A stretch of DNA of 6,976 nt from a virus (Duplodnaviria; Heunggongvirae; Uroviricota; Caudoviricetes), in IMG/VR virus record IMGVR_UViG_2537561980_000011; one strand, given 5' to 3'. Both the position numbers and the translations under genes were made by a program. The notes beneath the pieces were generated by a model. It was not told the origin of the DNA. It did no database searches and was given only the letters and a program-made list of their open reading frames with translations. This document shows, piece after piece, positions 6,061 to 6,976 of the stretch. Position 1 is the first letter of the stretch. Each line of letters starts with the position of its first letter.

Positions 6061-6976
6061 ATGTTCCTTACCGACGCAAAAATCCGCACCCTCAAGCCTT
6101 CTGATAAACCCTTTAAAGTCTCCGATTCTCACGGTCTGTATCTGCTGGTCAAGCCGGGTGGCTCCCGCCACTGGTATCTCAAAGCTGGAGGTTGCGTCCC
6201 GCACACGGCAGCACCTGAGTAACATAATGCGCCATGCGGTCCATCAGGAGTTAATCGATACGAACCCTGCAGCAAACCTTGGCGGCGTGACCACACCTCC
6301 TGTCAGACGGCACTATCCTGCCCTGCCGCTGGAGCGGCTGCCTGAACTGCTTGAACGTATTGGGGCATATCATCAGGGCCGTGAACTGACCCGGCATGCC
6401 GTTCTGCTGATGCTGCATGTGTTCATTCGCTCCAGTGAACTGCGTTTCGCCCGCTGGTCAGAGATTGATTTCACAAACCGAGTCTGGACGATACCCGCGA
6501 CGCGAGAACCCATTATTGGCGTGCGTTATTCCGGCCGCGGGGCAAAAATGCGAATGCCGCATATCGTCCCCCTCTCAGAACAGTCCATCGCCATTCTGAA
6601 ACAGATTAAGGATATCACCGGTAATAATGAACTGATCTTCCCCGGCGACCATAACCCGTATAAGCCAATGTGTGAAAACACGGTCAATAAGGCACTGCGG
6701 GTGATGGGTTACGACACGAAAAAGGATATCTGCGGTCACGGCTTCCGGGCAATGGCATGCAGTGCGCTGATGGAATCGGGTTTATGGGCAAAGGACGCAG
6801 TAGAACGCCAGATGAGTCATCAGGAGCGCAATACCGTGCGCATGGCTTATATTCATAAGGCAGAGCACCTAGAAGCCCGCAAAGCGATGATGCAGTGGTG
6901 GTCGGATTATCTGGAAGCATGCCGAGAATCTTATGCACCGCCTTATACAATTGGTAAAAATAAGTTTATCCCATAG
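6061..6976 (+). pseudogene. P4-type (tRNA-associated) tyrosine integrase remnant: 41-aa N-terminal arm-binding segment fused out of frame to the catalytic domain after an internal deletion
   Basis: ATG 6061 (GGAG 11 nt upstream) gives MFLTDAKIRTLKPSDKPFKVSDSHGLYLLVKPGGSRHWYLK, the hallmark N-terminus of P4-like integrases, then runs into a stop after AGGCVPHTAAPE. From about 6185 a different frame encodes ...LEVASRTRQHLSNIMRHAV... through a complete catalytic domain (box I Arg in FIRSSELRFARW, KMRMPHIVPLS, GHGFRAMA, RMAYIH Tyr) to TAG at 6974-6976. Total coding length is about 305 codons against about 400 or more for intact family members, so roughly 0.3-0.4 kb is missing. Confidence 0.8.

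Follow-up and report, generated by a model that had tools for sequence, protein, structure and literature searches.

A 347-bp internal deletion interrupts the integrase gene of the yersiniabactin island at asnT of Escherichia coli

What kind of gene is the integrase that adjoins asnT in this stretch of DNA, and what does its interrupted reading frame say about the element to which it belongs? The window, i.e. the whole stretch of 6,976 nucleotides that was analysed, is Escherichia coli chromosome, and its part from 5800 to 6976 matches many complete genomes at 100% identity. In the matching genomes, the gene order runs from zinT or a prophage through serU (tRNA-Ser), mtfA and asnT to an int pseudogene and the ybt cluster; mtfA and serU thereby lie upstream of asnT, as at the chromosomal asnT locus. 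ARAGORN placed serU, a tRNA-Ser(CGA) gene, at 4743-4832 on the minus strand and asnT, a tRNA-Asn(GTT) gene and the integration site of the island, at 5824-5899 on the plus strand, where it is annotated between mtfA and the int pseudogene in identical genomes. The 3′ end of asnT contains the attL core, the 17-bp sequence CCAGTCAGAGGAGCCAA (5884-5900, plus strand). In mobile high-pathogenicity islands (HPIs), this sequence forms the flanking direct repeats, with a second copy at the right border. The layout is that of an HPI, with insertion at the 3′ end of asnT and int, whose ATG lies at 6061, as the first gene. Between asnT and this ATG, a direct repeat CAGGTTAGT(G/T) occurs at 5950-5965 and 6030-6045 with a spacing of 80 bp; the two copies may represent arm-type sites of attL for integrase binding, or they may be chance matches.

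The gene is the integrase of the Yersinia high-pathogenicity (yersiniabactin) island of E. coli, broken by an internal deletion. To map the deletion, the intact 1,263-bp int gene of strain Y5, which encodes a protein of 420 aa (WP_000480163.1), was aligned to positions 5990-6976 of the window. Starting from the ATG at 6061, frame 1 encodes MFLTD...SRHWYLK, i.e. 41 native codons, and continues with 12 out-of-frame codons to yield a peptide of 53 aa. The native part (6061-6183, plus strand) represents the first half of the arm-type DNA-binding domain and is identical to codons 1-41 of the intact gene, and the out-of-frame tail AGGCVPHTAAPE (6184-6222, plus strand) ends with the TAA at 6220-6222. 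Frame 2, with LEVASRTRQ... from 6185 on, stays open up to the TAG at 6974-6976, the final codon of the window. This 3′ remnant (6184-6976, plus strand) consists of the third base of codon 157, codons 158-420 and the TAG, and it is 100% identical to the intact allele. In comparison with Y5 there is a single gap of 347 bp between 6183 and 6184 on the plus strand, by which codons 42-156 and two nucleotides of codon 157 (of 420) are lost. Outside the gap all coding bases are identical to the Y5 int, and the sole mismatches, at 6028 and 6053, are both located 5′ of the ATG. Since 347 equals 3 × 115 + 2, the frame shifts downstream of the gap. Instead of one uninterrupted frame of some 400-420 codons we thus found two, from 6061 to 6222 (53 aa) and the frame-2 remainder to 6976, and it follows that the gene is a pseudogene derived from a DUF4102/P4-type member rather than a functional member. 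In the inspected identical genomes, the RefSeq/PGAP annotation is that of a frameshifted pseudogene ('tyrosine-type recombinase/integrase, frameshifted'). A GTG at 6050 was considered as the start of a 308-aa fusion ORF and rejected, because the native GGAG overlaps with it and the N-terminus would be translated in the wrong frame.

An earlier, sequence-only reading of this DNA had proposed a P4-type integrase at asnT that keeps 41 codons and a full catalytic domain but has lost the middle out of frame, with the junction at 6183-6190, where HWYLK is followed by LEVASRTRQ in another frame. The domain matches (DUF4102-type), the position of the tRNA-Asn gene, the alignment with Y5 and the Pfam results all bear out this description, and they fix the junction between 6183 and 6184. 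As to how the deletion arose, a script applied to the aligned sequences revealed no microhomology at the breakpoints CTCAAA/TACCGT and AGGTCT/GCTGGA, so that slippage between short repeats is unsupported. Recombination with a paralogous integrase was likewise rejected, as both flanks of the junction are 100% HPI-int. Paralogues with 73-75% identity align only from just past the junction, which is to be expected from the sensitivity of megablast on the short 5′ part.

Integrases of the IntSXT type are commonly named P4-type or CP4-57-type. The N-terminal arm-binding domain of the DUF4102 type is a feature of this subgroup of tyrosine recombinases (Smyshlyaev et al. 2021, PMC8138268). In the intact HPI protein, Pfam recognises Arm-DNA-bind_3 at residues 3-87, Phage_int_M (PF22022) at residues 98-191 and Phage_integrase (PF00589) at residues 224-384. 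The 5′ remnant matches Arm-DNA-bind_3 at residues 3-41 only, corresponding to profile positions 1-37 of 83. Among solved structures, the arm-binding domain of a 'CP4-like integrase', 3jtz (88 residues), corresponds to residues 1-81 of the intact protein (E = 1.8e-45), so that the 41 residues amount to about half an arm-binding domain. The previous statement that the arm-binding N-terminus is retained is therefore correct for these 41 residues but not for the domain, of which only half is left (41 of ~85 residues). The core-binding domain is affected as well: PF22022 gave no match in either remnant ORF, residues 98-157 are deleted, and about two thirds of the domain is gone, the last third being kept in the 3′ remnant. 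The catalytic domain, on the other hand, is present, with a PF00589 match at E = 3e-20 that covers profile positions 22-170 of 172. The catalytic residues, which were assigned by motif inspection, are all found in frame 2: Arg in FIRSSE, Lys in GAKMRMPHIVPL / GAKMRMPH, His-x-x-Arg in HGFR, His in MSH and Tyr in AYIH. The deletion breaks both DNA-binding modules, and neither remnant product contains a complete one.

A further tyrosine integrase in the window is also frameshifted. It is located beside serU at 3666-4716 (ORFs 3666-4337 and 4238-4690) and belongs to a lambdoid prophage at serU, whose genes in the window include an exonuclease (963-3404) and a DUF4224 gene (3463-3666). This integrase carries the label 'frameshifted' in ETEC1747 and HCM-27C-1. 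Two tRNA-linked elements thus lie side by side in the window, and in both of them the integrase is broken. All E. coli genomes that match the prophage part begin to match at base 455, and in HCM-27C-1 the piece corresponding to window positions 1-454 is found some 2.9 kb further off, where a copy of the IS4-like element ISVsa5 (IS10-type) is located. Probably, the window starts within the terminal part of an IS element that borders directly on the prophage's dicB region; the exact 454/455 join occurs in no complete genome of the collection.

Is the deletion in int real? That the frameshift could be an assembly artefact had been raised in the sequence-only reading, and the PGAP label says just 'frameshifted'; if both the frameshift and the deletion had arisen during sequencing or assembly, the real gene would be intact. 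Apart from this general possibility nothing speaks for an artefact, and several findings speak against it. A 40-mer that spans the deletion junction was found in 334 of 5,426 complete E. coli genomes, in every case on the chromosome and in one copy. An identical junction is accordingly shared by 334 independently sequenced complete genomes from varied hosts (humans, cattle, pigs, poultry, dog and tapir, besides water), and the difference to the intact gene is a gap of 347 bp, not a homopolymer slip. Moreover, both ORF products are represented in public databases, the 53-aa product as 'DUF4102 domain-containing protein' and a 249-aa product of the 3′ remnant as 'integrase', each on at least 1,000 contigs of public assemblies. 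The probability of an artefact is thus negligible.

The same set of complete genomes gives an impression of how common the deleted allele is. A 40-mer over the intact left breakpoint is present in 1,875 of the complete E. coli genomes, and the deleted allele accounts for 334 of the 2,209 genomes with this part of int (~15%, or about one in seven). The deletion junction did not turn up in a set of 185,579 species-representative genomes, in which the intact junction is found for K. pneumoniae, Raoultella planticola and Shigella flexneri. The 420-aa form makes up one cluster of at least 90% identity across E. coli, Klebsiella and Shigella. A side observation concerns SFIM01000026.1, a contig assigned to a 'Clostridiales bacterium' MAG, which contains the intact HPI int junction sequence at 679-704; most likely it is an enterobacterial contig that was mis-binned into the MAG.

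In an evenly spaced sample, the deleted (one-piece) matches are 99.9-100% identical over 977 bp, and the intact alleles of the same sample range from 99.8% down to about 97%. The high identity among the sampled carriers makes the deletion look recent rather than old. This disagrees with the view that the remnant marks an 'old or degenerate' island, a view that is also contradicted by the complete cargo in two genomes (see below). An identical junction without microhomology, together with near-zero diversity, argues for a single deletion event, and we infer a single origin from these sequence comparisons. From its distribution and diversity, the deletion allele appears to be derived, confined to E. 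coli and young, and it characterises one sublineage of the E. coli HPI in its common, immobilised form. The catalytic domain has not acquired further mutations. This fits a recent deletion, but it would be compatible with selection on a restart product, too.

It is therefore important to consider what the remnant could still express. A consensus scan revealed a promoter-like site (TTGACA, 17 nt, TAATAT) upstream of asnT at 5777-5805 on the plus strand, which could drive read-through into int. Upon integration, the HPI integrase comes under the promoter of the asn tRNA gene (PMC8209727). A putative ribosome-binding site, GGAG, was noted 10 nt 5′ of the int ATG (6047-6050, plus strand), and no terminator-like site was found within 5700-6976. 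The native GGAG, the promoter-like site at asnT and the lack of a terminator suggest that the remnant is still transcribed and that the 53-aa peptide is translated. The internal Met that had been noticed near 6228 corresponds to the ATG at 6227-6229 (plus strand), which is Met172 of the intact Int and lies 4 nt past the frame-1 stop. It is a possible restart site from which a product of 249 aa would result. According to their layout, the TAA at 6220-6222 and the ATG at 6227 could permit some reinitiation and thus give a catalytic fragment of 249 aa. The isolated catalytic domain of lambda Int is said to have been characterised by Tirumalai, Healey and Landy in 1997 as capable of topoisomerase-type cleavage and religation only, not of recombination. 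By analogy, the 249-aa fragment might cleave and religate DNA but not recombine it.

From these considerations one may ask whether the short form is functional, either as a conserved short subfamily or through the 249-aa restart protein, alone or together with the 53-aa peptide, which might recombine DNA or be useful in some other way. The catalytic domain is complete and identical to that of a functional-type allele, the 4-nt spacing between the stop at 6220-6222 and the ATG at 6227 makes termination-reinitiation conceivable, and the native ribosome-binding site as well as the upstream tRNA promoter are unaltered. Yet the short form differs from the 420-aa form only by the 347-bp gap; it is the 420-aa gene itself, shortened by 347 bp and frameshifted, and it occurs in E. 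coli only, whereas other genera have the 420-aa form. Hence it is not the conserved short subfamily that had been put forward as a possible refutation. Furthermore, translation from the restart codon would give a product without the arm-binding domain and without residues 98-157 of the core-binding domain (98-191), the ATG at 6227 is preceded by only a weak GAG, the island has no right attachment site that could serve as recombination partner, and the isolated catalytic domain of lambda Int reportedly does not recombine DNA. Taken together, a functional short form is very unlikely. The chance that a restart from the ATG at 6227 yields a catalytic-only Int with a biological effect, in which case the allele would not be neutral, is slimmer still. 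Were the restart product active, it may for example nick or relax DNA at asn-tRNA attachment sites, or interfere with the related integrases that other asn-tRNA islands, e.g. the pks island, encode.

The broken integrase raises the question of whether the rest of the island has decayed as well. As the window does not extend past the stop codon of int, the cargo was read from other genomes that are identical across the asnT-int region. In strain 4/2-1, int is followed by all eleven genes ybtS-X-Q-P-A, irp2, irp1, ybtU-T-E and fyuA, none of which is flagged as a pseudogene. The full ybtS-to-fyuA cluster is present in both inspected genomes, 4/2-1 and ETEC1747, and both are 100% identical to window positions 5800-6976. 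The expectation that the cargo lies beyond the window proved right, and the Yersinia-type HPI, which had been mentioned as an example of an asnT island, is in fact the element in question, given the ybt/irp/fyuA cluster after int in these genomes. Strain 789 is also 100% identical to the window over 5800-6976. It appears to be the APEC O78-9 strain of PMC4313913, because the coordinates given in that paper for the serU phage and the asnT HPI coincide with the match. In APEC O78-9, yersiniabactin is the one iron system that cannot be replaced by others in serum (PMC4313913). The cargo is thus complete in the inspected genomes and reported as functional in one allele-bearing strain, and only the mobility module is degenerate.

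At the other end of the island, a boundary repeat of the asnT 3′ end had been anticipated. In strain 4/2-1, however, no right-hand copy of the 17-bp sequence CCAGTCAGAGGAGCCAA was detected after fyuA, even when up to 3 mismatches were allowed, in agreement with the literature (PMC2606025). The sole other match to this sequence within 40 kb of 4/2-1 lies in the next asn tRNA gene, 39.5 kb away and on the opposite strand. The right direct repeat is accordingly deleted in strain 4/2-1, as in a fixed island. Downstream of fyuA (30308-33766 of the extracted locus), this strain has inverse-autotransporter/Ig-like (yeeJ-type) fragments, partial and frameshifted, and such fragments at the right flank are consistent with the published deletion of the right border and the adjacent backbone. 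No Hef/Xis directionality factor is annotated after fyuA in strain 4/2-1, a statement that refers to the annotation only. Hef, encoded at the right end, was reportedly found to be required for excision of the HPI in Yersinia (Lesic et al. in 2004). Nearly all E. coli HPIs are located at asnT, and on the fyuA side they have in common the loss of the border with its direct repeat (Schubert et al. 2009, PMC2606025). Such border-deleted islands are fixed and spread by homologous recombination (PMC2606025), and a second report likewise describes the E. coli HPI as fixed at asnT with the right direct repeat deleted (PMC8209727).

Taking all of this together, we propose, with a probability of roughly 93%, that the HPI int gene was inactivated by a single 347-bp deletion and that it is a recent, neutral pseudogene that travels with a complete ybt cluster, is immobile and is confined to E. 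coli. One deletion has removed residues 42-157 of a three-module tyrosine recombinase and shifted the frame. From the native ATG a 53-aa peptide would be made, and the catalytic domain would be produced only, if at all, by a restart at the ATG at 6227. The element would be unable to excise or integrate by site-specific recombination, since a complete DNA-binding module is lacking and the right attachment repeat is missing; recombinase activity is presumably lost. Mobility of the island had been lost before int was deleted, so the deletion most likely was neutral and spread by hitch-hiking.

One could also imagine positive selection for the deletion, as a step of 'domestication' by which the yersiniabactin island became locked in the chromosome. 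The allele occurs at ~15% of the int-carrying complete genomes, in strains from many hosts, and islands are known to become stabilised through the loss of their integrases (discussed in PMC8461471). But the right repeat has already been lost in the common E. coli HPI (PMC2606025; confirmed here), and removing int from an island that is immobile in any case adds no stability. The intact gene is moreover kept in 1,875 genomes, and the deleted allele could have reached its frequency through hitch-hiking on successful lineages, together with the homologous recombination described for the HPI region (PMC2606025). Selection for stabilisation consequently has only a small probability, and we consider a neutral, hitch-hiking pseudogene the preferable explanation.

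A deleted HPI int is in itself already known and is an ordinary annotated pseudogene. The present analysis gives exact coordinates for a common pseudogene allele, and a junction sequence of 30-40 bases suffices to type one sublineage of the E. coli yersiniabactin island, in which integrase and right attachment site are both gone and the virulence cargo is complete in the inspected genomes. It also entails a warning for annotation, as the entries for a 53-aa 'DUF4102 protein' and a 249-aa 'integrase' are the halves of one broken gene. Beyond such housekeeping the importance is slight.

Comparison with known systems places the locus as follows. The intact HPI integrase (Int-HPI or IntB, 420 aa), which is found in Yersinia pestis, Y. 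pseudotuberculosis, Klebsiella and most HPI-positive E. coli, is the same gene. Its Y5 allele (WP_000480163.1) adjoins an asn tRNA gene, is followed by ybtS and is 100% identical in the retained coding bases; unlike the intact Int-HPI, the copy in the window lacks codons 42-157 and is frameshifted. Karch et al. reportedly described in 1999 an HPI of O26 STEC in which int is truncated by a deletion at the left junction, on the side of int, and the yersiniabactin and fyuA genes are kept. The locus in the window resembles this island in its asnT site and its truncated int, and the carriers of the deletion found here include STEC-sized genomes and an O111:H11 strain. Likely, the O26 deletion is the same 347-bp event. 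A description of exactly this 347-bp deletion was not found in a full-text literature search, outside of which Karch 1999, Schubert 1998 and Szwagierczak 2009 fell.

Integrase loss has occurred in other HPIs, too. The HPI int of Y. enterocolitica 1B carries a premature stop. In ECOR72, intB is interrupted by an insertion sequence (PMC2606025). As in these two cases, the integrase was lost independently in the present sublineage and the siderophore cargo was kept, but here the lesion is a 347-bp deletion and not an IS insertion or a point mutation. For a product restarting at Met172, the C-terminal fragment of lambda Int may serve as a model, since it represents a catalytic domain without the arm- and core-binding modules. 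Unlike this putative product, however, the lambda fragment was made in vitro, and it is only distantly related. Finally, the locus shares with the common immobile E. coli HPI (PMC2606025) the insertion at asnT, the absence of the right 17-bp repeat and a yeeJ-type remnant downstream, but differs from it in that int function has additionally been lost in this sublineage.
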